Source of the DNA: Vermamoeba vermiformis
Lineage: Eukaryota
Assembly (NCBI GenBank): GCA_045837725.1
Contig: JBEWZL010000123.1
Location: 248,001 to 312,000, forward strand
Direction of reading: 5' to 3'
Length of the DNA stretch: 64,000 nucleotides
The translations under genes and the position numbers were made by a program. The notes under the pieces are model-generated. The model did no database searches. It saw nothing but the letters and a program-made list of their open reading frames with translations, and was not told where the DNA came from. Of this stretch, positions 4,561-30,562 are shown piece after piece; position 1 is the first letter of the stretch, and every line of letters begins with the position of its first letter.

Positions 4561-7290
4561 ATGTCGTCAGGTAACCACAACTCATTAAATAATATAATGA
4601 CTCCCGCATGCTAAATGATTATATCGTGTAGTATATACTTGGGGCTGCGGTTTTGAAGGCCGTTTAGGCAACGGCAATGCTGAAGATGAATGTCGAGGCT
4701 CGTTAATTCATATAGCCGAGCTTGAAAATAGGCCAATTAAATTTGTTTCTGCTGGAAGAAAAGTGACCGCTGTTTTAACTGGTAAGTATTGGCTTTTAAT
4801 AGTAAATTAATGCATTTTTGATTTTTTATTTGACAAGATCCGATATTTAAGTCCATAATAAATATCGTATTAATTATAGCTATACTGATATTTATTATTG
4901 TCTATTAGAGGATGGCGAATTGATAATTTACGGTGAAATTATATCTAATCAACAAAATCTTCGCGTGTCTATCAAAGAATTGATGCCCGAGGCTGTAGTT
5001 CGCGGTGTTGCGTGTGGATTAAATAATCTTGCATTTTATACCGAGAAAAATGAGGTAAGAATCAAAGACTAGTACTGTACAGATCTCAGATCCGGTCGTC
5101 CTCGATAATCATTGTAATATTAATGCTAGATCATAGGTCTATGTATGGGGCGATGCATTTAACCCGACAAAAGGACCAAAGAAAGTTCATCGATTTGAAG
5201 AAAATGTCAAAATTAAGCAGATCGCGTGCGGTGCTCTTCATTGCCTCGTATTAACCGATTATGGTAATAATAATTTAAATCATAGTCATTGGAAACAATA
5301 GATCACAAAGATAAGTCATTAACGGAAGACTCAATTTTACACTTACCGCATCTAGGTGTCTATGGCTTTGGCAACAATCACTCAGGTCAACTAGGTCTTG
5401 ATATGACACAACGTGGTATGGTGCCCAGAGGAAACGTGCAACACTCAGAACTGCAGCTCATTAAGGCGTTGACTGATAAGAACATTGTCAAAATTGCTTG
5501 TGGTGGATATCATTCGTTAGTTCTAACTGGTATGTACACTAAACTACATATAGTATTATATAATGTATTTTTTGTTATTTTGTTAGATTTGTTCTTACTT
5601 TTTTCTTGTAGATCAAGGTGAAGTGTTCGGATTTGGAGCAGGAAATTACGGCCAATTAGGCAACGGCAGTGTCATTAATAAATCGACAATAATACCTGCC
5701 AAGGCGTTAGCAGGCAAGAAGATCAATTTCATCGCAGCTGGACCTTCTCACTCGATCGCGATCTCGACTGACGGCAAAGTGAGTAAAGATAATCAATACG
5801 ATTTATTTAAATAAGACACTATCGCTAACCCTTCACATTAATAATATAGGCCTATTTATTCGGTCGTACAGAAAGCAAACAATGCAATTGCACAGCACCC
5901 GAGAACGCGTGTGTACAGCCTGTGGAAGTGTCTATGAAAGATGAATACTTCGTCTATGGCGCAGCAGCACATAGCTGCACATACTTAGTCACTGTTAGTG
6001 GAAGAATTTTTAGCTATGGAACGTTGTGGGTAAGTCTAAGTTCGAGGAAAAAAATTGGTGTTTAAAATCGATGCGGGACATCATCTTTGACCGATGTTGA
6101 TTATGTTTGTATAGGGCGAGGAGAAATATAACACCAATTTTATTGGTCAAGGACAGACCCTCAACGATAAATTCATTCATCAAATATGGTGCGGTCATTA
6201 CCACGCCATAGCCGTAGTCGGAGATATGCGCGTGAACATCAGTCCGTCAACATTCATTGCCAACATGCAAACAGCGTACAACGACACACTTCACAAGGAC
6301 ACGACATTAGTAACATCTCACACTAAGAAACAAGTCCATAGCGTCATATTCTCAGCTTTATCGGAGGTCATTCGGGCGAAATTATTAGACGACAAAATGA
6401 TCTACTTCAGCAACACCATTGATTTGACAAATGAACTAATAGACCTGCCACAGCACCTATTCGAAGTGATCGTTCAATATTGTTATGGAATCAGCAGTGA
6501 GATCAACAAAGAAGACTTGAAATTGTTAGTCAAAGTCGGCGAAACCTTAAAGTTTGAAGCACTCGTCAGCGAATGCAAGAGACTCGAGCCAACCAACGGT
6601 ACGGTATATTTGTAGAGCTCGGCAGGTGGTAGTATTATATTAATGATATCATATGTAGAGACATTCTTATCGATCCCACTAAAGTCCCTAAGTGAAGCAC
6701 TGGGAAGAATCTTCGCAGCACAAGACGCACGGACTTCAGATATCACGTTCACTTTTGACAACACCCCCGACAAGTTACACGCACACAAAATCATTCTGTC
6801 ATCTCGATGCGAGTACTTCAGAGGTCTGTTCGACTTGGGAATGAAAGAGAGCAAACAAGACACAATGCACATCAGTGAGTGGAGCATGGAGTCATTCAGA
6901 GTGATGCTCGAGTTCTTGTACAGCGATCAACTGTCGAGTGTGACAGGTGAGAATGCATTGGAAGTGCTTCAATTGGCCACAACGTACTTAATCCAACGAC
7001 TGATTGACAAGTGTGAAGAGTTTATCGTTGAGAATATGACACTCGATAATATCGTCGAGTTGTATTTGTTCTCTGAAACACTCAATCTTAAACAGATCCA
7101 GCGCGGCTGTCAGTTCTTAGTGCGCAGAGAAATGTATCAAAAACCAGTCGAGTCATTGCCTGGCTATGAAAAATTGAGTGCCGTCCAAAAAGAACAATTG
7201 AAACAGTTCTTGTCTGGCAAACCTGTCGGAGCTGATAATACCGATAATAATGACAAACCAACCGAATCGAGTCGATGTATTATCAGTTAA
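4561..7290 (+). CDS. RCC1-repeat + tandem BTB/POZ protein with C-terminal CaaX (copy 2), multi-exon
   Basis: Same domain order and largely the same intron positions as copy 1; ends SSRCIIS*. Confidence 0.9.
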
Positions 7291-14274: not shown

Positions 14275-15255
14275 TTAGACGCGAATAATTACGGGCTGGA
14301 GCTCTTCTTGACGCTTTCTAAGCAAGTAGCCCAGTGTAGTCTCAATCTCCTCAGGCAATTGATTGGTTCTTGTATTATAATCTTGAGGAATATTTTGAAG
14401 CAAAGCCATAATCTCCTTGTCCAGCTTACAGATGGTTCGGTACGGCCACTTGCGACATCTGACTGCTTCCTTCCAGCGCTTGCTAAGGGTCGATGTCGGG
14501 ATGCCAAGTCTTCGTGCGGCTTCCTTTTGTGGCATATTCAGATAAGGAGTAATGTCAATATAAGTGGCTTTAGCACCGCCGGGAGCCAGCGATCGAACCA
14601 CTCCAGGCGAGGCAGGAGTGATAGCAGTGGACATATTGTTGTTATTTCCAGAACCACTGTTGGGCGAGGAGACTTGAGCATTATTACCGCTAACAGGAGC
14701 AGGGGACTGAGGATTAGCAAGTCCGTTGGGCGTATTTCCATTGTTATCTTGAGAAACAGCTGATTGATCGTTCTGACCAGAAGAAGCGTTGATTACTTCA
14801 TCGTGAATATTCTTGTTGGTAGCAGTGCTCTGCTGGATTTGTGACAAGTGAGGGAACGAGATGATCGAGTTCGCAGAAGGGGGAGAAGTCATTTGACTGG
14901 CTTGAGAAAGCTGAGAAGGGACGAGGCCTTGATTGCTCATGGCCATGTTAGCCATAAGGTTCGCTTGCTGCTGTTGTTGAGGCGGAAACTGCTGTAGATT
15001 CGCAGGGTTTTGAGCCATACGGAAGTTGCCACCCGGCATGCCAGAAGCGGCTGAAAATTGCATTTGAGGGATTCCTGCTTGAGACATCATCGATACGGCT
15101 TGAGGGAAGAAAGAGAATTGTTGTTGCATGTCTTGTTGCTGAGGCATGGCATTTTGGACAGAACCAGGTTGCATCTTCGGATTCATTTGCCCTTGGAAGG
15201 GGAATGACTTTTTATCCATGTCACCGACATTAAAACCGTCCATCCTTTGGTTCAT
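14275..15255 (-). CDS. RWP-RK domain transcription factor with Q/N/S-rich N-terminus, intronless
   Basis: ITPYLNMPQKEAARRLGIPTSTLSKRWKEAVRCRKWPYR is an RWP-RK helix-turn-helix signature. Confidence 0.85.
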   Translation of the reverse strand: MNQRMDGFNVGDMDKKSFPFQGQMNPKMQPGSVQNAMPQQQDMQQQFSFFPQAVSMMSQAGIPQMQFSAASGMPGGNFRMAQNPANLQQFPPQQQQQANLMANMAMSNQGLVPSQLSQASQMTSPPSANSIISFPHLSQIQQSTATNKNIHDEVINASSGQNDQSAVSQDNNGNTPNGLANPQSPAPVSGNNAQVSSPNSGSGNNNNMSTAITPASPGVVRSLAPGGAKATYIDITPYLNMPQKEAARRLGIPTSTLSKRWKEAVRCRKWPYRTICKLDKEIMALLQNIPQDYNTRTNQLPEEIETTLGYLLRKRQEELQPVIIRV

Positions 15256-15364
15256 CAAACAGAAAATTCAAACAAAATAAGAATGGCGCGTGTTGCTCGT
15301 GGTTTTGTTGAACGTGAAAAGATGACAACCCGTAGAACGTTCGAAGAAATTTCTACACTGATAG

Positions 15365-18517: not shown

Positions 18518-18940
18518 CAATTATATGATATATAGTATAGTGTTATATTAATACATTATGTGTTCAATCAAATAAATAAACTAGAAGATTAGAGCAACTG
18601 AAAAATTTGTTTTTCAAGGCTTGTTTCGAACGAAGTTTCTATTTTTTACTTCCTATAACGTAAAAACAAGTAATTGAGAAGGATTTTATAGTCATTAGTA
18701 AGAGAGCACTCTTTGAACAGGTTATTCGGATGAGCTCCGAAATCTGACAGTTTTACGCCACATTCTAGATACGACGAATTGACTGCCTATAGTTTATTCA
18801 AATGTGGTTCAGAATTGACGTTAATAATTTTATTTTGTTTTCGTTTGTCTTTGCAAAGAAGAAAATAGCTCTTCGTTAAATTGCATTTTGTTGTTGAACC
18901 TGTGCCCCACAGTAGCATATTCAACTGTTATATTAGTCCA

Positions 18941-21240
18941 ATGTCGCAACAGAGAATATTAGCCGTGGCCAATAAGGCATTCAAAGCCGTTTCAAGACAG
19001 AACGTTGTTTCATCTGTTTCTGTTTTGAAAACTGTTGCTTCTTCCAAGCGCAGCTATTCGGCAGTAAATAAATCAAATATCAACAATAAAACCAAGGTAT
19101 GTATAATATTTGAAACAATGCAGATTCCTTAGAAAAATCAGATCTAATTAAATGTAAAAATATATCTTATATTACTTTAGGATTATTAATATCACCAAAT
19201 GACAATATTATTAATTACATTATCAGATAAATAAAACCGCCATTTTTGGCGCGACACCCAGATCCACCAAACGATACTTCGCATCAAATCCGTCTTCTGC
19301 CGCCGGTGGTGTCGTTCAATTCAAACTTGCCGATGTCGGTGAAGGTATTGCCGAAGTAGAAATTTTAAAATGGTTTATTGCCGAAGGAGATACGGTCAAC
19401 GAGTTCGATCCCCTATGCGAAGTACAGACTGACAAGGCTACCTTGCCAATTACTAGCAGATACACCGGCAAGGTCAAGAAATTGCATTACAAAGGTAATC
19501 ATAATTTTATATAATTTTAATAGGCCGAATTATTGAAACAGAAATGTCTTTCAAATATTTTGATGGCGCGTGGATCCGCTTTTGAATCACATCGAGTCGC
19601 TGACGTATATTATTATAGAGGGAGATGTGGCTAAAGTAGGAACATTTTTGATGGATATTGAAGTCAGTGGAGGTGCTGCTAAAGCCGATTCTCATGCCAC
19701 ATCCGCTCCATCTGCTCCTAAACAACAGCAACAAGCTGCTGCTAAGCCTGCTAGCACCACTGCTCAACAAGGAACTCCTGATTATGATAGCAACGTTATT
19801 GAAACTCGCTCTGGACCTCTGTAAGTTCACTTGACATTTTTTATTGAAGCTTTTAAACGTCTCAAAGAATGATAATAATAATTCAATAATGATAATATAT
19901 TAGTGACTCTAATTAGGATGAATATAGTTTAATGATAGAATTTATTATTAATAATAATATTTGTTTTGACCGATTTTACTATTTTTAGTAAGGTGTTGGC
20001 GGCACCAGCAGTGCGACACATGGCGCGCAAACACTCGATTGATTTGTCCAATTTGACTGGCACTGGTCGCGATGGCCGAGTGCGCAAAGAAGATTTGTTG
20101 AACTTCATTCAGAACGGTGGTGCTGCTCAACCACAACAACAACAGAAACAGACTCCAGTTGAATCTGCTCCTGCTGCCGGTACGTAATATTGCACTACTA
20201 TCATTATGCCTATAATAAGCAATCACACCACTTCGAGCCAATGTTCGAGTTAATTTTTGGATCCGTTCATAATCGCAACTATTATTATTAATTAGCCGAA
20301 TAATATGGCATAAATATACGGGGCATACTAGTGTTAATAATACTCATATTTATTATTCTGTAGCTGCTCCTTCAGTCTCGGGTACGGATCGCGTTGTTCC
20401 TCTTCGTGGCCACGCCAAGGTTATGGCTCAGACTATGACTGCTTCATTGAAGATCCCGCACTTCGGTTACTGCGATGAAATCCGCATGGATGGTTTGATG
20501 GAACTGCGCAAAAGAATGAAACACTTGGCTGAAGAGAAGGGAGTCAAGTTGAGCTACTTGCCCTTCATGATCAAGGCCGCTTCTATGGGTCTGAAGAAAT
20601 ACCCTATTTTGAACAGCAGTATCAACGAGTCTCTGACCGAAATTACATTCAAGGTACGTTTTCGGCATCTGATCCAAAAAATTTTAATTTCTAATAATAA
20701 TTCTATTAGGCTTCACATAACATCGGTTTCGCTACTGATACTCCTAACGGTCTTGTCGTTCCCAATATTAAGAACGTTCAAGACTTGAGCATTTTCGAGA
20801 TCGCTGCCGAATTGAACCGACTGATCAAGGCTGCTAAGGACAACAAATTGACCAAGAGCGATTTGACTGGCGGTACTTTTAGCTTGTCTAACATTGGTAC
20901 TATTGGCGGTACTTACGCTAAGCCTGTTATTGTCTCTCCGGAGGTAAGTTTAAAATTCTAAATTTTTAGATTGGATCCGATCCAGCATTTAATGAATTAT
21001 ATTATTGAGCGTAATTACCTTTATTAATGCTTTACTATACAGGTTTGCATTGGAGCTTTGGGCAAGATCCAAAAGCTGCCTCGTTTCGATGACCACGATC
21101 GTGTTGTTCCTATGCACCTGATGCAAGTTAGCTGGAGCGCAGATCATAGAGTTATCGATGGTGCTACTATGGCTAATTTCTCTAATTTATGGAAGTTGTA
21201 CTTGGAGCAGCCTGATCTGATGTTGGCTGAATTGAAATAG
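18941..21240 (+). CDS. DBT: Branched-chain alpha-keto acid dehydrogenase E2 (dihydrolipoyl transacylase), mitochondrial, multi-exon
   Basis: Lipoyl domain [23 protein letters not shown]3-binding [11 protein letters not shown]; catalytic [10 protein letters not shown] and [12 protein letters not shown]-terminal presequence. Confidence 0.95.
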
Positions 21241-21346
21241 AAATTTTGAAATGCGCTTTACATCCGGAAATATAAAATAACGATATTTACTCTTAATACG
21301 CTATATCTAATTCATACGATTACGATTCTACAAACAGATCCTTCTC

Positions 21347-22211
21347 ACATCTGTCATCTTCAGAAGCTCAACGAATGCTGAAGACTTGACAGGATTCAAC
21401 GGTGCTGGATTGTACGAGTCTGTTCCCTTATTTGGTGCTAGCTTGCACGATCCTCAACAAGTCGCTGCTGCCATTAAGAAAGTGTGGGCGAGTGTCTGGA
21501 ACGTGAAGTAAGTCACGAATAGCGTTCTAATACAAATTCTGATGATGTTCACAGAGCTGTGAAAGAGCGAGATCACTGCATGATACCGCACTGTGAAGTC
21601 AAGATGGCGGTCATAGTACAGCCCTTCATCGACGAGCACATGAAGAATGTCCAAGTGCACTACAACGGAGTGTGCATCACTCACGACATTTATCATCACC
21701 AGGTCAAGCATGGGTTCACCGTCAATTGGTATGTCTAAGCAATTGGCTCTTGTATTTATCGCTAATGAATATCATTTACAGCTATCCAGGATATTCACTC
21801 CGGGCCACTAATTACTACAAAGATGAGATCCCGGAGCAGACTATATTGCTGTTAGGTCGAGCGGCAAATTCTGTTGACGTCCAACTCAAGTCAACGGCTA
21901 CAGGACACCCAGGCTCGTTGATCACACAAGCGGACGCCGAGAAGATGGTGTCAGTCTTTGGCTCACTCCACACATCAATGCTCAACAAGCCACACAAGCT
22001 CGATGACACAGTGGCACTCGACATTGAGTTCATGGTTGTTGGCAGCAACAAAGAGCCCGGAAAGAGGGATATCGTCGTGCTTCAAGCCCGTCCTTACACT
22101 ATTAATGCCGTGGCTACTGATGCGCTCGATCAGGAGTTAAGAGTGTTCGCCATGGCCAATCCGTACTTTGCACATCACAACATTCGCAAGGTGTTCTTAA
22201 CGACCGCATAA
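21347..22211 (+). pseudogene. 5'-truncated copy of the dikinase-like gene (C-terminal ATP-grasp part only)
   Basis: Homology begins abruptly at TSVIFRSSTNAEDLTGFNGAGLYES about 100 bp after the DBT stop; both 3' introns retained; no His domain and no start exon. Confidence 0.8.
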
Positions 22212-22424
22212 CGCTTCTTCCATAAGATCTTTTCGTGCTATCAACTTTTTAGGCTAACTAGTAAATTAGATGGCTGAATCAAAAAATCAATCTGTATCGT
22301 TTAATTTATCAAATTTAATAAATAATTTAAACGATATTCTCCGAAGAGATTTCAGCCGGCATTACTGAAAGTAGTTATTTTTTAATAACGAGTTACTTCA
22401 CAAAGCACAAATCAAGTCAGTACC

Positions 22425-24835
22425 ATGTCTAGTTTAACAGGGCTGTTTATTTCATATTGCGAGCCTTACTACGAACCGTCAGCTGAGGAGATCGAGGCTC
22501 AAAGAAGAGCCATGGAAGAGCAACATGAGCGCGAAAAACATACGATATTTCAATACAAGTTCTTTCAATCAATTGCTCGTATTGAAGGAGAAAGTGGCGG
22601 TAAGTGTTGAAACGGATTCGCATTTATTTTGGTAGACACCGATGCCAAAATTATTTGGCGCTCGGGAAACTGAAATATATTTTAATGCAGGACATTAAAT
22701 CACATAATCATAATTTTTAATAATATTACAAGCCATCGGAGTCAAACTTCTTCGCGACAAGCAAGGTGTGCTGCACTTCATGAATACAAAAGTATGGCCA
22801 TTCCATTACCCTTTTTGCGTCAGTAACTTGAATGAAAAGAGGTAAGTCAGCGATTACGAGTTATTTAATCCTTGACGGCTCTGGAATTCTAAAACGATGA
22901 ATTCACAGGACTTTGCAAGAATTCAATGAGCAAGTTTACACTGGCAAAGACCGATCGATGATGTTTGCTACGATAGTATCCTACCCTGCCTCGCCCTTCC
23001 AAAAATACTTCTGTCTTGAGCTCAATCCAGCAGATCCGATGAACGAGCTCGATTCTCTCAATGGTTTCTTCCAACAGGTTAAAGAAAACTTTCTTGCCAA
23101 TGAAGGCGTCACATTATACTTCCATCCGACATCGGCAGTCCAAACAGAGGCGATAAAAGACAAAAGTCTTTGTTTGCCGGTCATCACCTCGGACAAGATC
23201 TACGGAGCTACGACGTACAAGATGATTCAGCCCGGTGAATTGCCTTACAAGAAGATACGAATCTTTGGAGATATTACCAGCGACAAAACGTTCTCTGAGG
23301 ACGAGCTGAACAAGTGGTTGTTACAACGTACCGAGGACGAAATTGTTGTCATACCAGCGGTGCCTAGTGACATCCCCGTTGTTGGTGGCGTGATCTGTGG
23401 TGAGATTATTCCGCCGTTGTGTCACGTGGCGTTGTTGTGTCAGAACAGAAAGACGCCATGCTGCTTCCTGAAGAAATGCATCTCAAAGTTCAGAGCACAA
23501 TTTAAAGAAAACGAAGTAGTTAACGGAGTTATAACGAAGGCAGGTTGCTTCGTGAAATTTGAAGGAGCCAAAGCTGACTCCGTCATCGACAAAAGCGAAG
23601 TACCAACGATCGAGATCATGCCAGCAGACACCTCTGTGGCCAACTTGATCGATATCCACGAAGACAAAGTGCACGCAAAGGACATCCAAGTTGTTGGTGC
23701 CAAAGCAGCACAGCTTGCCAATGTCGAGTCACATTACAGCCAACCAACCTTCAAAGGCACATTCGTCATTCCATTCCACCACTACAACAAGCACGTACAA
23801 GCGAGCGCGATTTCGAGTATAATTCCAGTGAAAATTAACCGTATGAAGCACTCGTACTTCACTTTCGACGAGTTCAAATTGGTCCAAGAGGCTATTCAAG
23901 AGGAGAAGGTCGATGACGAGCTTGTTCAGAGCGTGATCGAGAAGATCAAACAACACAACATGACATCTGTCATCTTCAGAAGCTCAACGAATGCTGAAGA
24001 CTTGACAGGGTTCAACGGTGCTGGATTGTACGAGTCTGTTCCGTTGACAGGAGATGACGTACACAGTCCTCAACAAGTGGCCAAGGCTATCAAGACAGTG
24101 TGGTCCAGCATCTGGAGTCCAAAGTAAGGACTGAACTTTATACAATAACGTAATCTGATTTGGGTATTAGGGCTGTTAAAGAGCGACAGCACTTCAAGAT
24201 TAATCATTCGAATGTCAACATGGCAATCTTAGTACAGCCCTTCATTGATGAGCACATGACAGACGTTAAAGTGCATTACAACGGAGTGTGCATCACTCAC
24301 GATGTAGCTCGTCACAAAGTCAAGCACGGGTTTACAGTTAGCTGGTACGACATTGCAAAGCGGGGTATTGTATGCGCATTATTAATGTTATCTTTACAGT
24401 TTCCCTGGCACCAAGTTACGAGCCACAAACTTCTACAAAGACCAATTCCCCGAGCTGACAACACTTCTTTTGGGCCGTCAAGCAAACTCCATTGACTTAC
24501 AGATCACAACAACGGCTACAGGACACCCAGACTCGCTGATCACACAAGAAGACGCCGAGAAGATGGTGTCAGTCTTTGGTTCACTTCACACATCAATGCT
24601 CAACAAGCCACACAAGCTCAATGACACAGTGGCACTCGACATTGAGTTCATGGTTGTTGACAACGACAAGTCGACCAATAAGCGCGAGATCGTGGTGTTG
24701 CAAGCACGTCCTTACACTGTTAATGTGGCATCCGTCGAACAGCTGGATGAAAAACTTCGAGGTTTCATGCAGAAAGCTGCGTACATGAAACTATCCCGAG
24801 AACGATTCGTTTATCACTATCCATTAGAATATTAA
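22425..24835 (+). CDS. PEP/pyruvate-binding (PPDK_N ATP-grasp) dikinase-like protein with upstream phospho-His swivel motif, copy A, 5 exons
   Basis: VGGVICGEIIPPLCHVALLCQNRKTP; VGAKAAQL; FRSSTNAEDLTGFNGAGLYES; MAILVQPFI; LDIEF..VLQARP. Confidence 0.85.
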
Positions 24836-24953
24836 ATAGAGTTTTCTCTCTCTGGCAAAAAATCTCTGCGTGATCTGGCCGTTTTTTTCGGTTCAAATTC
24901 AATTTTAGTTTCTAAAAGCAATCGAATTTAAATTTCTCATAGAGTAGCACATA

Positions 24954-25253
24954 ATGTCCAATTTAGCTGCACTTTTTCTTTCCTATTGCAATGAGACTTA
25001 CGAACCACCGCCTGCAGAGCTCGAAGAGGCACTTGACATTGAGTTCATGGTTGTTGACAACGACAAGTCGACCAACAAGCGCGAGATCGTGGTGTTGCAA
25101 GCTCGTCCTTATACTGTCAATGTTCCTACTTTGGACTCTGACCTGGATGCGGTTGTGAGAACGAATGCTTGTCAGGAGGCAATGAAAAGAAGCTGTGCTT
25201 TTGGTCGGGTGGATTTTGTACGAAATATATTTACGCTCTTCGAAAGCATGTAA
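24954..25253 (+). pseudogene. Internally deleted mini-copy of the dikinase-like gene (99-aa in-frame fusion of N- and C-termini)
   Basis: MSNLAALFLSYCNETYEPPPAELEE is joined directly to ALDIEFMVVDNDKSTNKREIVVLQARP. Confidence 0.8.
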
Positions 25254-25385
25254 CTATAAATAAACTTGTCCAAAAAAGGAAATAATTAACCTCGCTGCGA
25301 GATTGATAGCAATGCCATTTTTATTTTGTTGTCAACAGTCTTGGTACTTCGAATATCAACTTGAGCGACCACAAAGATCTTTACA

Positions 25386-27824
25386 ATGTCTAATTTAGCA
25401 GCATTATTTGTTCTTGGGTGCGGCTGTGATTATGAACCGACTCCCGAAGAGATCGAAGCTCAACGAAAATACATGGAAGAGCAGAAAGAAAGAGAAAAGC
25501 ACACGATCTTCAACATTTATCAATTTCAAACAATGGCAAGAGTTGGGGGAGAAAACGGAGGCAAGTTGAACGAACGGATTTAATAAATTTAAATTTTAAA
25601 TTTGGCTTGCGCTTCAAGCTCGGCTCGCATCTAAGAATTATAAATTAATCATTTAAAAATGAGGAATTATACCCAAATTAATCAAATCCGTTTAGCTCTG
25701 GGAGTTAAGGTTCTTCGTGACAAAACCGGCGTGCTGCACTTCATGGACACGAAAGTATGGCCATTTCATTACCCTTTTTGCGTCAGCAACCTCGATGAAA
25801 AGAGGTAAGTGAGCGATTACGAGTTATTTTTAAGGCTTGGCTCTGGAATTCTAAACCGTGAATTCACAGGACTTTGCAAGAATTCAACGAGCAAGTTTAC
25901 ACCGGCAAAGACCGATCGATGATGTTTGCGACTATAGTAAGGTACAACAGTCCCGACAATAAGGGCCATTACTGCTTGGAGTTGAATCCGGCAGATCCAA
26001 TGACGGAACTTGACGCGCTGAATGGGTTCTTCGAAGACGTCAAAAAGAACTTTTGTTGTCCTAATGGCAGTAGTGAACATGTTCTTCACTTTCACCCAAC
26101 TTCAGCGGTGCAAATCGAGGCGATCAAGGGCAAGAAGTTAAACTTGCCAGTCATAACTTCAGAACAGATCTACGGCAACATCAAGTTCAAGTTGGTTCAA
26201 GCTGGTGCAATGAAGAACAAGAAAGTGCATGTCTTCTATAGTAGGGAATACAAAGAGGAGGAGCTGAACAAGTGGCTATTGAAACGAACAGCAGATGATA
26301 TCGTGGTTATTCCGTCGGTGCCGAGCGACATCCCCGTTGTTGGTGGCGTGATCTGCGGTGAGATTATTCCGCCTTTGTGTCACGTGGCGTTGTTGTGTCA
26401 GAACAGAAAGACGCCGTGCTGCTTCGTCAAAAATTGTGTTGCTATGATCAATCGGGCAGGCAGTTTGATCCATGCGAAAGCGGCGAATGGTCTCATCACA
26501 AAGGCTGGATTCTACTTGGACGGAGAACACTTGGACAGCACTGCTGCTGTCATTCCAGAAACCCCTCTCAAGATCGAGATCAAAGCGCCGAACACCTCTG
26601 TGACCAAATTGATCGATATCCATGACGACGATGCCAAGGACATTCACGTTGTTGGTGCCAAAGCAGCGCAACTTAGCAAAATTGAAGCACACTACAGCCA
26701 GTCAATCTTCAAAGGCACATTCGTCATTCCGTTCCATCATTACGAGAAACACGTCTACAAAAATAAGGAGGTCGCTGACGATGTCGAAAAGAGGCTGCGT
26801 CTTCTGAAAGAGAACGCTGATCATATCAAAAACTTTTTCAGACTTCAAGAAGCTATTCAAAAGCAGGAAATCGATGGCGAGCTAGTTCAGAGCGTGATCG
26901 AGAAGATCAAACAACACAACATGACATCTGTCATCTTCAGAAGCTCAACGAATGCTGAAGACTTGACAGGATTCAACGGTGCTGGATTGTACGAGTCTGT
27001 TCCGTTGACAGGAAGCAGCGTACAAGATGTCCAAAAAGTCGGTGAAGCGATAAAGAAAGTGTGGGCCAGCGTTTGGAGCTCGAAGTGAGTCATTAGTACT
27101 TATTAATGTTATTTCGCGTACTAATTTGCTGATTGAAGGGCTGTGCTGGAACGCGAGCATTATCAGATGAACCACGAAAACGTCAACATGGCGATCTTGG
27201 TGCAGCCATTCATCGACAAACAGTTGCAAGGTGTCAAAGTGCATTACAACGGAGTGTGCATCACTCACGATGTGGCTCGTCACAAGGTCAAGCACGGGTT
27301 CTTGGTCAACTGGTACGTTCGAGTGCTACAGCGTTAGCTCTGTCTAATTATCTAACTGGGTCACTTGCAGTTTCCCCGGCAGCGAGCTCAGAGCCACAAA
27401 CTATTACAAAGGAAAGACTCCTGAACAAACAATGCTCGTGTTGGGTCGTGAAGCAAAGTCTATTGATGTGCAAATCATTACTACTGCTACTGGTGAGACT
27501 GGCTCAATGATCACGCAAGAAGACGCCGAGAAGATGGTGTCGATCTTTGGCTCACTTCACACATCAATGCTCAACAAGCCACACAAGCTCGATGACACAG
27601 TGGCACTCGACATTGAGTTCATGGTTGTTGACAACGACAAGTCGACCAACAAGCGTGAGATCGTGGTGTTGCAAGCACGTCCTTACACTGTCAACGTTGA
27701 GAATGCTGATGAATTTGATGAGAAGTTGCGTGAGTTCGCTACTCTTAACAGGTTCGCATACGTGTGGGCACACAGGATCGCATTCTATTATTCTACGGAT
27801 GAAGTTACTTCACCACCACAGTAA
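25386..27824 (+). CDS. Dikinase-like protein, copy B, 5 exons (first intron GC-AG)
   Basis: Same motifs and intron positions as copy A; reading frame intact after splicing. Confidence 0.85.
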
Positions 27825-28089
27825 AAAAATGCTTGGTTCAAATAAAAACCACGCTTACTTCCTAGCGATGAAAAGTTCAAACAATGCCAAAATATTAGAA
27901 GGGTATTAAGTGTGTTTTATTTTTGGTTGAAGATCCTCTACTACGGACAGCCCAGGCTTGTGAAAATCGTACGAAAAAGGAAATTTTTTTCATCTCGCGG
28001 GAGATTTAAGTCAAAAAACTATTGGCAATAAGTACAGCCAGCAGTCTTTTACTTATTCCAACAAAGAATAACACTACTCAGACCACAGA

Positions 28090-30562
28090 ATGTCGAATTT
28101 AGCGGCGTTATTCGTGCTGAGTTGCGGCAGTGATTACGAACAGACTCCCGAAGAGATCGAAGCTCAACGAAAATACATGGAAGAGCAGAAAGAACGAGAA
28201 AAACACACGATCTTCAGTATGTATCAATTTCAAGCATTGGCAAGAGTTGAAGGAGAAAGCGGAGGTAAGTTGAACGAACGGATTTACTTCCATAAAAATT
28301 TAAAAAAAAATTTAGAGGCCATTTTCTCGCCCAATAATTCTTTTTCACGCAAATCGAGTATGATCATAATTAAATTTCCTAAAATCAAAATTGTGGCTTA
28401 CCGTCTTTGCCCATCCGTTTAGCTCTCGGAGTTAAGGTTCTTCGTGACAAGACTGGCGTGCTACACTTCATGGATACGAAGGTATGGCCATTCCACTACC
28501 CCTTTTGCGTCAGCAACCTTGATGAAAAGAGGTAAGTCAGCGGTTATGAGTTATTTTTAGCTTACCGTTACTCCTTGTTGGCTCTGGAATTCTAAACGGT
28601 GAATTCACAGGACTTTGCAAGAATTCAACGAGCAAGTGTACACCGGCAAAGACCGATCGATGATGTTCGCTACTGTCTTGTCGTATCCTGGAAGCGATGG
28701 CAAAAGATACTACTGTATTGAACTGAATCCAGCAGATCCAATGACGGAACTTGACGCACTGAACAGTTTCTTCGAAGACGTCAAAAAGAACTTTTGTTCT
28801 AACGATGGAATACAATTCTTCTTCCACCCGACTTCAGCAGTGCAGACTGAAGCAGTCAAAGCTGGGAAGTTGACGCTTGGATGTGCTTAAGTCCGAGACA
28901 CTGTACGGCTGCATCAAGTACAAGTTGATTCAAGCTGGCACAATCGATCACAAGCGAGTGCGTGTCTTCGATAAAAAGAACTACAAAGAGGACGAGCTGA
29001 ACAAGTGGTTGTTGCATCGAACTGCTGATGAGATCGTGGTCATTCCATCGGTCCCGACGGATATTCCCGTTGTTGGTGGCGTGATCTGTGGTGAGATTAT
29101 TCCGCCTTTGTGTCACGTGGCGTTGTTGTGTCAGAACAGAAAGACGCCGTGCTGCTTCGTCAAAGACTGTATTACTATGTTCAGGAAGGGCAATTTGGCG
29201 GACATTGTCGTGGAAGGCGTCATCACAAAGACTGGATTCTACTTGGACGGAGCTGAAGGCTTTGAGAAATTGCAACACAAGGAGGCTCCAAAGATCGAGA
29301 TCAAAGCGCCGAACACCTCTGTGACCAAACTGATCGACATCCACGAAGACAAAGAGCACGCAAAGGACCTCCAAGTTGTTGGTGCCAAAGCAGCGCAGCT
29401 TGTCAATGTCGAGTCACATTACAGCCAACCAATCTTCAAAGGCACATTCGTCATTCCGTTCCATCATTACGACAAGCATGTCTACAAGAACAACGATACC
29501 ATAAGCACCATTAAAGTCAAGACGACACGAGCCAGGGGGAATGCGGAGAATTTCAACGAGTTCACTCAGGTCCAAGGAATGATACAGAAGCATAAGATCG
29601 ATGACGAGCTTGTTCAGAGTGTGATCGAGAAGATCAAACAACACAACATGACATCTGTCATCTTCAGAAGCTCGACGAATGCTGAAGACTTGACAGGATT
29701 CAACGGTGCTGGATTGTACGAGTCTGTTCCGTTGTTTGGTGCTAGCTTGCACGATCCTCAACAAGTCGCTGCTGCCATTAAGAAAGTATGGGCGAGTGTC
29801 TGGAGTCCGAAGTGAGTATTGATAATCACCTTGGTAATACTACGTCTTGCTTACCGATCTGTAGGGCCGTCAAAGAACGCGAGCACTACCATATGGAGCA
29901 CAAAAACGTCAACATGGCGATCTTGGTGCAGCCATTCATCGACAAACAGTTGCAAGGCGTCAAAGTGCATTACAACGGGGTGTGCATCACTCACGATGTA
30001 GCACGTCACAAGGTCAAGCACGGGTTCTTGGTCAACTGGTACGTCCTAATTAATTTTAGTTACTGCATAACAACCACTTTAGGTCTACTTTACGCACCTT
30101 CATAATGGACTAACGTGATCTCTTGTAGCTTCCCAGACTCTGAACTACGGGCCACAAACTATTACAAAGGAAAGACTCCTGAACAAACAATGCTCGTGTT
30201 GGGTCGTGAAGCCAACTCAGTGGACATGCAGATCATCACCAGGGCTACTGGTCAGATCACAATCGCTGATCACGCAAGAAGACGCCGAGAAGATGGTGTC
30301 GGTCTTTGGCTCACTTCACACATCAATGCTCAACAAGCCACACAAACTCGATGACACAGTGGCACTCGACATTGAGTTCATGGTTGTTGACAACGACAAG
30401 TCGACCAGCAAGCGTGAGATCGTGGTGTTGCAAGCTCGTCCTTACACTGTCAACGTTGAGAATGCTGATGCACTCGAAGAGAAGTTGCGCACGTTTGCCT
30501 TCTCACACAGATATTACTATGGCACTAACAAGTTTGCGTACCATTCGAATGAGGAGTATTAA
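28090..30562 (+). pseudogene. Dikinase-like protein, copy C, with two apparent +1 frameshifts (pseudogene or assembly errors)
   Basis: All motifs present; frame breaks near 28880 (LTL/DVLKSE) and near 30258 (TGQ/SLITQEDAEK). Confidence 0.65.

Follow-up and report, generated by a model that had tools for sequence, protein, structure and literature searches.

A tandem array of intron-bearing genes for putative three-domain His-swivel dikinases, probably of bacterial origin, in Vermamoeba vermiformis

The glucan kinases GWD and PWD (EC 2.7.9.4, 2.7.9.5) carry a phospho-histidine (His) swivel domain ahead of a C-terminal ATP-grasp domain. GWD is redox-regulated via a disulfide near its His according to the accessible part of PMC12892837, in which no solved structure is reported for the GWD/PWD catalytic module. 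In rifampicin phosphotransferase (RPH) the order is ATP-grasp, RIF-binding domain and His, with K22, R117, T136 and E297 as catalytic residues (accessible part of PMC4844700). Here we describe five head-to-tail units (c0 to c4) related to these enzymes in a stretch of 64,000 nucleotides of the Vermamoeba vermiformis genome (GCA_045837725.1, contig JBEWZL010000123.1, positions 248,001 to 312,000, forward strand), hereafter the window. Our reading, which as a whole we put forward tentatively, is that an amoebozoan lineage took these genes from a bacterium of the Myxococcota/Proteobacteria type, added introns and multiplied them, and that they would encode a three-domain His-swivel dikinase for which a sugar hydroxyl is the likeliest acceptor.

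All five units lie on the forward strand with spacers of 118-265 bp (Table 1). The sequence-only reading had described five head-to-tail copies; the order stands, but "copies" does not, as there are two intact genes (c1, c3), one gene with two frame breaks (c4) and two fragments (c0, c2). The swivel His codons it had pointed out are CAC in c1, c3 and c4 (23423, 26381 and 29114), and the motifs it had named recur on the forward strand: GAKAAQL three times, RSSTNAEDLTGFNGAGLYES four times and DIEF..LQARP five times. The fragment c0 lacks the N-terminal domain and the His, and the 105 bp between it and the neighbouring gene hold no upstream exons; it is 91.6% identical to a full copy on contig C216. 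Intron 1 of c3 (25561-25695) has GC-AG ends, while the other copies have a GT donor. The proteins of c1 and c3 are 66% identical. Their synonymous difference is 0.05-0.18 in blocks around the catalytic motifs versus approximately 0.4-0.8 in most other blocks, a pattern that suggests gene conversion and one shared reaction, not diversifying targets.

Further full-type copies with the same exon layout occur elsewhere in the 43-Mb genome (C216, C213, C156 and C30, the last with one frame break), together with a divergent family locus on C266; no additional copy was found in the 10 kb flanking either side of the window. Just beyond the C216 copy (L011:5083-5288) there is an inverted segment with 90.7% likeness to c1 exon 1, and at 21348 and 22443 contigs of the DNA run X1 take a different course. 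The arrangement of the array seems to differ between strains or haplotypes.

Splicing is visible in run X6, which stems from a close relative (95-99% alike) and is presumably of RNA. Its contigs skip precisely the predicted introns of the c0, c1 and c4 types, with GT..AG ends, and none of these joints was seen in the DNA run X1, so that the intronisation proposed from the letters alone is borne out. For c1, joints mark introns 1, 3 and 4, and matching loose ends mark intron 2; for c4, introns 1 and 3 are spliced. Because paralogues hold near-identical blocks, joints are not always assignable to one copy, and one of them connects c3-like to c4-like exons. c4 has a surplus base at 30257 that X1 (depth 427 of 812) and X6 (11.1 of 11.1) do not show, and an X6 contig over the first c4 break has 460 letters for 461 positions; c4 is therefore probably intact in other strains, or its breaks are assembly errors here. 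The RNA runs X18 and X20 gave just 28 and 17 mostly partial reads, which are uninformative on expression level (a neighbouring housekeeping gene is similarly sparse); four X18 reads continue across the exon 4/5 junction. The GT-AG introns, the joints present in X6 and not in X1, and the eukaryotic, intron-bearing neighbours rule out that these genes are bacterial contaminants in the assembly.

The domain order is N-domain, His swivel, ATP-grasp. This order, which the sequence-only reading had likened to GWD/PWD, is confirmed by Pfam, with PF01326 after the His, and by the fold model of a full-length homologue (P0002, 59% identical over exon 3; mean predicted local distance difference test, pLDDT, 88.7). 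Residues 198-320 of this model resemble the swivel domains of 2e28 (Z 8.7, root-mean-square deviation (rmsd) 2.9, 102 aligned) and of enzyme I 2wqd (Z 8.4, rmsd 3.3, 109 aligned). The His lies in register with those of PEP synthase (by the family profile) and PWD, in keeping with the phospho-acceptor position already proposed for it. Residues 331-662 match the ATP-grasp of RPH 5hv1 (Z 28.4, rmsd 2.5, 291 aligned); by motif register, the four catalytic RPH residues correspond to K360, R452, S471 and E640 of c1, with Thr as Ser. c1 retains these as well as Q659 and R661, and c3 likewise has its full set of catalytic residues. Pfam scans and fold-model comparison found neither a pyruvate barrel nor a carbohydrate-binding module (CBM), as had been read, and a phmmer search of the PDB with exon 3 returned nothing real.

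The N-terminal domain was rightly called uncharacterised. It is a separate domain in the fold models, and that of a bacterial member modelled alone reaches a pLDDT of 93.4. Against 48,161 structure chains the best Z was 4.0, with none at Z>=5; Foldseek gave no match (best E 0.39), there was no PDB sequence match, an atlas search scored 0.79 at best, and no Pfam family is common to more than 2 of 68 members. Likenesses to human phosphohistidine phosphatase (Z 3.6) and to PPK1 chains (Z 3.2, 2.9) are at noise level. The models thus suggest an acceptor domain unlike any solved structure, which does not in itself prove a new fold. Seven residues (K63, H83, N101, Y105, R110, E133 and D138 in P0002 numbers) are kept in 92-100% of 110 sequences, R110, E133 and D138 without exception. 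All are present in c1 (K63, H83, N101, Y105, R110, E132, D137) and in c3, and we infer that they form one pocket. The His loop of eukaryotic copies (window 23420-23465 and equivalents) is Cys-rich, PPLCH versus bacterial QTPLSH, with a Cys right before the His and further Cys residues after it that are not in the bacterial consensus. By analogy with GWD, redox control of the amoebal copies through this loop is possible.

Table 1. Positions of the array units and of the predicted domains of c1 in the window.
Feature	Position	Strand	Basis
c0: 3' fragment (end of exon 3 and exons 4-5; second half of ATP-grasp only)	21347..22211	+	255-codon open 3' part
c1: intact gene, 702 aa, five exons (22425-22599, 22733-22841, 22909-24123, 24171-24344, 24400-24835)	22425..24835	+	open spliced frame, four GT-AG introns
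c1 predicted N-terminal acceptor-domain region, about residues 40-197, across introns 1-2	22542..23215	+	conservation, fold models
c1 predicted phospho-histidine swivel domain, approximate bounds	23222..23590	+	P0002 model residues 198-320
c1 predicted catalytic His267 codon, CAC	23423..23425	+	invariant in 110/110 homologues
c1 predicted ATP-grasp (PPDK_N) region, across introns 3-4	23633..24727	+	PF01326 E 2.5e-13 for exon 3
c2: 99-codon remnant, gene start joined straight to DIEF..QARP end	24954..25253	+	internal deletion
c3: intact gene, 708 aa, five exons (25386-25560, 25696-25804, 25870-27084, 27139-27312, 27371-27824)	25386..27824	+	His266 codon at 26381
c4: five-exon gene, two +1 frame breaks (near 28880; at 30257)	28090..30562	+	spliced length 2093 nt; His codon 29114

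A search with exon 3 found 784 proteins among 8000 scored, twelve of them at 49-67% identity; the next homologues have 600-700 aa and 26-33% identity over about 98% of the query. The family profile collected 2343 representatives at E<=1e-30, looser limits letting in ordinary PEP synthases. The bacterial relatives of these genes, which had been termed "orphan", thus number in the thousands and are mostly exported. A literature search found no paper describing the family (most subscription papers and supplements were outside its reach). Named loci belong mainly to Bacteroidota and Myxococcota, plus some Proteobacteria. Among evenly sampled genomes the family occurs in 38 of 101 from Myxococcota and 6 of 121 from Bacteroidota, and no member was found in the phages, plasmids and viral contigs searched.

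Export was judged by a simple heuristic (a hydrophobic stretch plus a basic n-region), not a trained predictor, by which 202 of 239 Met-starting homologues (of 252 examined) have a signal-peptide-like N-terminus, versus 39 of 1258 internal control windows; 64 of the signal-peptide-like homologues have a lipobox-like Cys. The amoebal copies fail this heuristic, c1 on both criteria and c3 in having the stretch and no basic residue; they share a short N-terminal helix ending in Cys12/13. Bacterial members are fused to LTD, fn3, Calx-beta, CarboxypepD-like, FG-GAP and Kazal domains, and two giant surface proteins (P0121, 3227 aa; P0259, 2025 aa) hold two dikinase cores each between fn3/Ig-like repeats. 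This appears to be a large bacterial family with mostly signal-peptide-bearing members.

Acquisition from bacteria, likewise anticipated, is supported by two trees. The ATP-grasp tree comprises 61 rows; of the 83 candidates, 18 that were redundant or long and four of GWD1 whose motif is displaced had been dropped. All 11 eukaryotic rows cluster together (100/99), and their cluster joins one of Myxococcota/Proteobacteria (99/92); three GWD-like and ten rows like PEP synthase (PEPS) or RPH fall outside the family, and a 100/98 branch splits the family and the GWD-like rows from PEPS/RPH. In the full-core tree (48 rows, quick search) six eukaryotic rows lie inside the Myxococcota/Proteobacteria half, with a Shimodaira-Hasegawa-like approximate likelihood ratio of 99. 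Gene transfer from a donor of that type is very probable on these sequences. Since one row of the eukaryotic group belongs to Echinamoeba exundans, we infer that the transfer is old.

The closest known kind is the GWD/PWD glucan kinases. HHalign with the PWD-type protein P0276 gives 99.6% over 427 collinear columns, beginning only at the His domain, and only 3.4% for N-domain plus His domain versus a GWD1-type protein. The motif GAGLY[ED]S, whose likeness to plant enzymes had been noticed beforehand, is common to the family and the GWD-like rows, while PEPS/RPH rows have S[FM]AGQ. GWD1_pHisD (PF22973) matches 21 of 69 family His domains, versus 1 of 69 for PEP-utilizers (E<=0.1, best 9e-6), and P0046 scores 26.7 bits against a cut-off of 27. 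Rooted on PEPS/RPH, the tree would make the family the sister of GWD/PWD, which fits the shared order, His-domain type, motif and HHalign result; the family appears to be the nearest bacterial relative found here of the GWD/PWD catalytic module.

Membership in GWD/PWD, PEPS/PPDK and RPH was rejected. Nesting of the eukaryotic proteins within a GWD/PWD clade, which the sequence-only reading had considered as the contrary outcome, was not seen: the approximately unbiased (AU) test rejects the 11 eukaryotic and three GWD-like rows as a clade (p=7.4e-5, four GWD1 rows left out), and neither a CBM nor the long pre-His region is present. PEPS/PPDK membership fails on the reversed order, the missing barrel and the TIGR01418 score (31.6 bits versus 739.75), and RPH membership on the 5hv1 match, which covers chain residues 1-317 only, and the NF041857 score (35.6 bits versus 999).

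Some observations on dikinases outside the family may be added. The GWD-like P0275 has a GT5 glycogen/starch synthase fused to the His/ATP-grasp module, and P0277 has Ig_N_CWD1, GWD1_pHisD and PPDK_N; both are without plant targeting features and are possibly bacterial GWDs. In the GWD1-type proteins P0278, P0279, P0280 and P0282 the motif RSxxNxEDL..GAGLYES lies near the C-terminus, out of the usual ATP-grasp order. The amoebal genome is unusually rich in dikinase-like genes, with at least five other PF01326 (PPDK_N) genes outside the family (on C124, C179, C43, C98 and C3).

By analogy with RPH, PEP synthase and GWD, catalysis of the His-swivel dikinase type is likely. The C-terminal ATP-grasp would bind ATP, His267 would attack the beta-phosphate with release of AMP and then Pi, and the swivel would turn so that the phosphate reaches an acceptor bound in the K/H/Y/R/E/D pocket conserved in the N-domain. 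The amoebal enzymes, without the bacterial export signal, would use cytosolic ATP and are possibly tethered, at this presumed location, through the conserved N-terminal helix with Cys12/13.

As acceptor, a glycan hydroxyl (of a glycan or a lipid-linked oligosaccharide) is our leading but tentative candidate, because of the kinship with GWD/PWD and two separate polysaccharide contexts. In the donor branch, signal-less betaproteobacterial members adjoin an Acetyltransf_6 GNAT (7 loci) and an ABC exporter with PglK/MsbA/HepA as best models (5 loci), the only recurring neighbours in the donor half, and the L064 member lies inside a PEP-CTERM exopolysaccharide cluster with a sugar transferase and a GT2. 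Elsewhere in the family, operons combine the dikinase with CotH, VTC and DUF4956 and with phosphate-porin-like barrels: dikinase-CotH-barrel-like-CotH/beta-helix-VTC-DUF4956 (L140), dikinase-porin O/P-CotH-CotH-VTC (L144), dikinase-CotH-VTC-DUF4956 (L141), DUF4956-DUF2490-LTD-dikinase (L142) and dikinase-porin O/P-LTD (L081). A trio of CotH, VTC and a 4-TM/ACT protein is described from a Pel polysaccharide operon (10.1101/2024.04.20.589940, in the part available).

Several observations weigh against this interpretation. On the side of ancestry, the branches to the eukaryotic rows are long, the full-core tree is a quick search only and sampling is thin; searching with the alignment of eukaryotic rows brought up no additional named eukaryote and overlooked even close known members, so that the eukaryotic range is poorly sampled. 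The window copies' own His domains do not match PF22973. The link to the flippase-like exporter and the GNAT comes from 7 related genomes, with below-cut-off model hits and opposite strands in most, and no neighbour is common to the family as a whole, most of the 102 first neighbours at 57 loci being unrelated. The N-domain has no likeness to any solved fold, carbohydrate-binding ones included, and there is no CBM. Finally, lipoproteins of the periplasm, proteobacterial forms of the cytoplasm and the amoebal proteins seem to share one and the same pocket, for which a simple universal substrate would be a better fit than a glycan specific to one lineage.

The main rival reading is an interconversion of polyphosphate (polyP) and ATP. 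The N-domain would then hold polyP, and the His would shuttle phosphoryl or pyrophosphoryl between polyP on one side and AMP/ATP on the other; bacteria would make periplasmic ATP from VTC-exported polyP for CotH kinases, and the enzyme of the amoebal cytosol would be a polyP synthase or an ATP buffer. This interconversion we regard as unlikely, and slightly more so its fullest form, in which the N-domain is a new polyP-binding fold, the His a shuttle between polyP and AMP/ATP and the whole a third eukaryotic polyP route recruited by the amoeba. It would supply the outside phosphoryl source that the mostly exported homologues need, and it draws on the association with CotH, VTC and DUF4956. Of the 73 Myxococcota matches, at least 13 have one of these genes within 10 kb (12 on the same strand), a lower bound given short contigs and 23 CotH rows left out. 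Among the 101 Myxococcota genomes, family-bearing ones more often have DUF4956 (30/38 versus 16/63 of the others), VTC (24/38 versus 14/63) and CotH (31/38 versus 20/63), counts that ignore kinship and genome size, while family-bearing Bacteroidota have DUF4956 in 5/6 (31/115 of the others) and VTC in 3/6. A DUF4956 neighbour in Flavobacterium (23 of 80 loci) was rejected as an operon partner, the gene pair being convergent. All 38 VTC-bearing Myxococcota genomes also have CotH, and among control genomes CotH matches occur in four, three of them with VTC and DUF4956 and Bacillus subtilis as the exception.

The association does not, however, reach the relevant branch. All eight rows linked to CotH, VTC or DUF4956 lie in the tree half away from the eukaryotes, and VTC or DUF4956 occurs in only 7 of the 31 genomes with Myxococcota/Proteobacteria loci (the tree puts most of these loci in the donor half and the others are presumed to belong there, apart from two), no more than the phylum background of 38/101. 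VTC, DUF4956 and CotH without the family in 14/63 genomes indicate that it is not an essential ATP source, and the premise of bacterial polyP export by VTC is itself hypothetical. The pocket has only two invariant basic residues. As to kinship with polyphosphate kinases, Pfam gives no PPK hit, and the N-domain has with PPK1 chains the noise-level Z scores given above. The host genome had no match to CotH, VTC, PPK1 or PPK2 in an exon-by-exon search that can miss genes and does not prove absence; its SPX hits are, by inspection and without Pfam confirmation, SPX-EXS transporters and one low-complexity false hit, and its DUF202 hit, judged in the same way, is a small stand-alone protein. A host without VTC and PPK would leave room for a new route, and Dictyostelium gained PPK1 from bacteria, but Vtc4 is absent from most eukaryotes anyway (both from the accessible part of PMC10657179). 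If the polyP reading were true, this would be a new polyP enzyme in a eukaryote.

An RPH-type kinase that detoxifies or activates a metabolite met in bacterial grazing, with the copies widening the range of compounds, is less probable again. Tandem expansion with copy birth and death is typical of defence genes, and the best structural match of the ATP-grasp is RPH; the Arg/Glu pair of the RPH acceptor site (PMC4844700, same part) could find a counterpart in the invariant R110, E133 and D138. Yet c1 and c3 do not differ in their pocket residues, nor, read by eye, do the other paralogues, the motif blocks appear homogenised between copies, the opposite of diversifying selection, and a RIF-binding domain is missing, as is an RPH score anywhere near the NCBIfam cut-off. 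Somewhat more doubtful still is a protein kinase or phosphorelay whose swivel His hands the phosphate to a protein docked on the N-domain: the PPDK-derived VadK is an autophosphorylating regulatory kinase (accessible part of PMC13400623), and bacterial members stand beside CotH protein kinases and carry the surface-display fusions (LTD, fn3, Calx-beta, CarboxypepD-like, FG-GAP), but no conserved partner gene was found among the neighbours, and a small polar pocket that stays invariant across Bacteroidota and amoebae is more in line with a small ligand than with a protein surface. We consider it very improbable that the proteins are carboxylate- or carbonyl-activating ligases of the PigC/RedH type or a non-catalytic relic. 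The NCBIfam PigC and RedH matches are weak, far below cut-off and limited to the shared ATP-grasp, and the N-domain would be too small for a two-substrate condensation site; three of five array units are broken or partial, but c1 and c3 retain their catalytic residues and transcripts are spliced in the close relative.

We thus retain the glycan hydroxyl as the candidate acceptor, with the reservation expressed above. If this is true, the family would add a second type of dikinase acting on glycans and could serve as a minimal GWD model. The amoebal copies, which are compact, carry no signal and are expressed in a close relative, would offer an easy route to the acceptor. To the bacterial family the window adds a eukaryotic branch with spliced and amplified genes, together with the donor group of that branch, and it shows that the VTC link stops short of this group.

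Other genes of the window are as follows. An intron-bearing gene for a 2-oxoacid dehydrogenase E2 (PF00198, branched-chain type by appearance; 18914-21241, forward strand) ends 105 bp ahead of c0 and is spliced in X6. A Gln/Ser-rich protein with an RWP-RK domain is encoded on the reverse strand at 14275-15267. Near-duplicate translated stretches on both strands at about 1600-1800 and 5750-5960 suggest another tandem gene pair at the window start.

Compared with known systems, the units of the array share with GWD/PWD the His swivel ahead of a C-terminal ATP-grasp, the GAGLY[ED]S motif and, in part of the family though not in the window copies, a match of the His domain to GWD1_pHisD. They differ in having an unrelated N-domain of 160 residues in place of CBM20/CBM45 and the long helical region, in their length of about 700 aa versus 1250-1480, in forming a separate clade, and in that the bacterial members mostly have an export signal. 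RPH (5hv1, 5fbs) provides the best structural match of the ATP-grasp, the same catalytic residues and a three-domain swivel design with a dedicated acceptor domain; identity is, however, 15%, the RIF-binding domain is absent and the domain order is reversed here. PEP synthase and PPDK likewise have a PF01326 ATP-grasp and a swivel His in register, but the pyruvate-binding barrel is absent from our proteins, which also have the reversed order and GAGLY instead of S[FM]AGQ and score far under the NCBIfam cut-offs. The bacterial "PEP/pyruvate-binding domain-containing proteins" are homologous over the full length, with the same invariant N-domain residues, His and ATP-grasp residues, and the eukaryotic rows lie inside their family. 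What sets the amoebal forms apart from these relatives, some of which occur in CotH/VTC settings that have no match in the amoebal genome, is the presence of introns, the lack of an export signal, a His loop rich in Cys and a divergent C-terminal tail.

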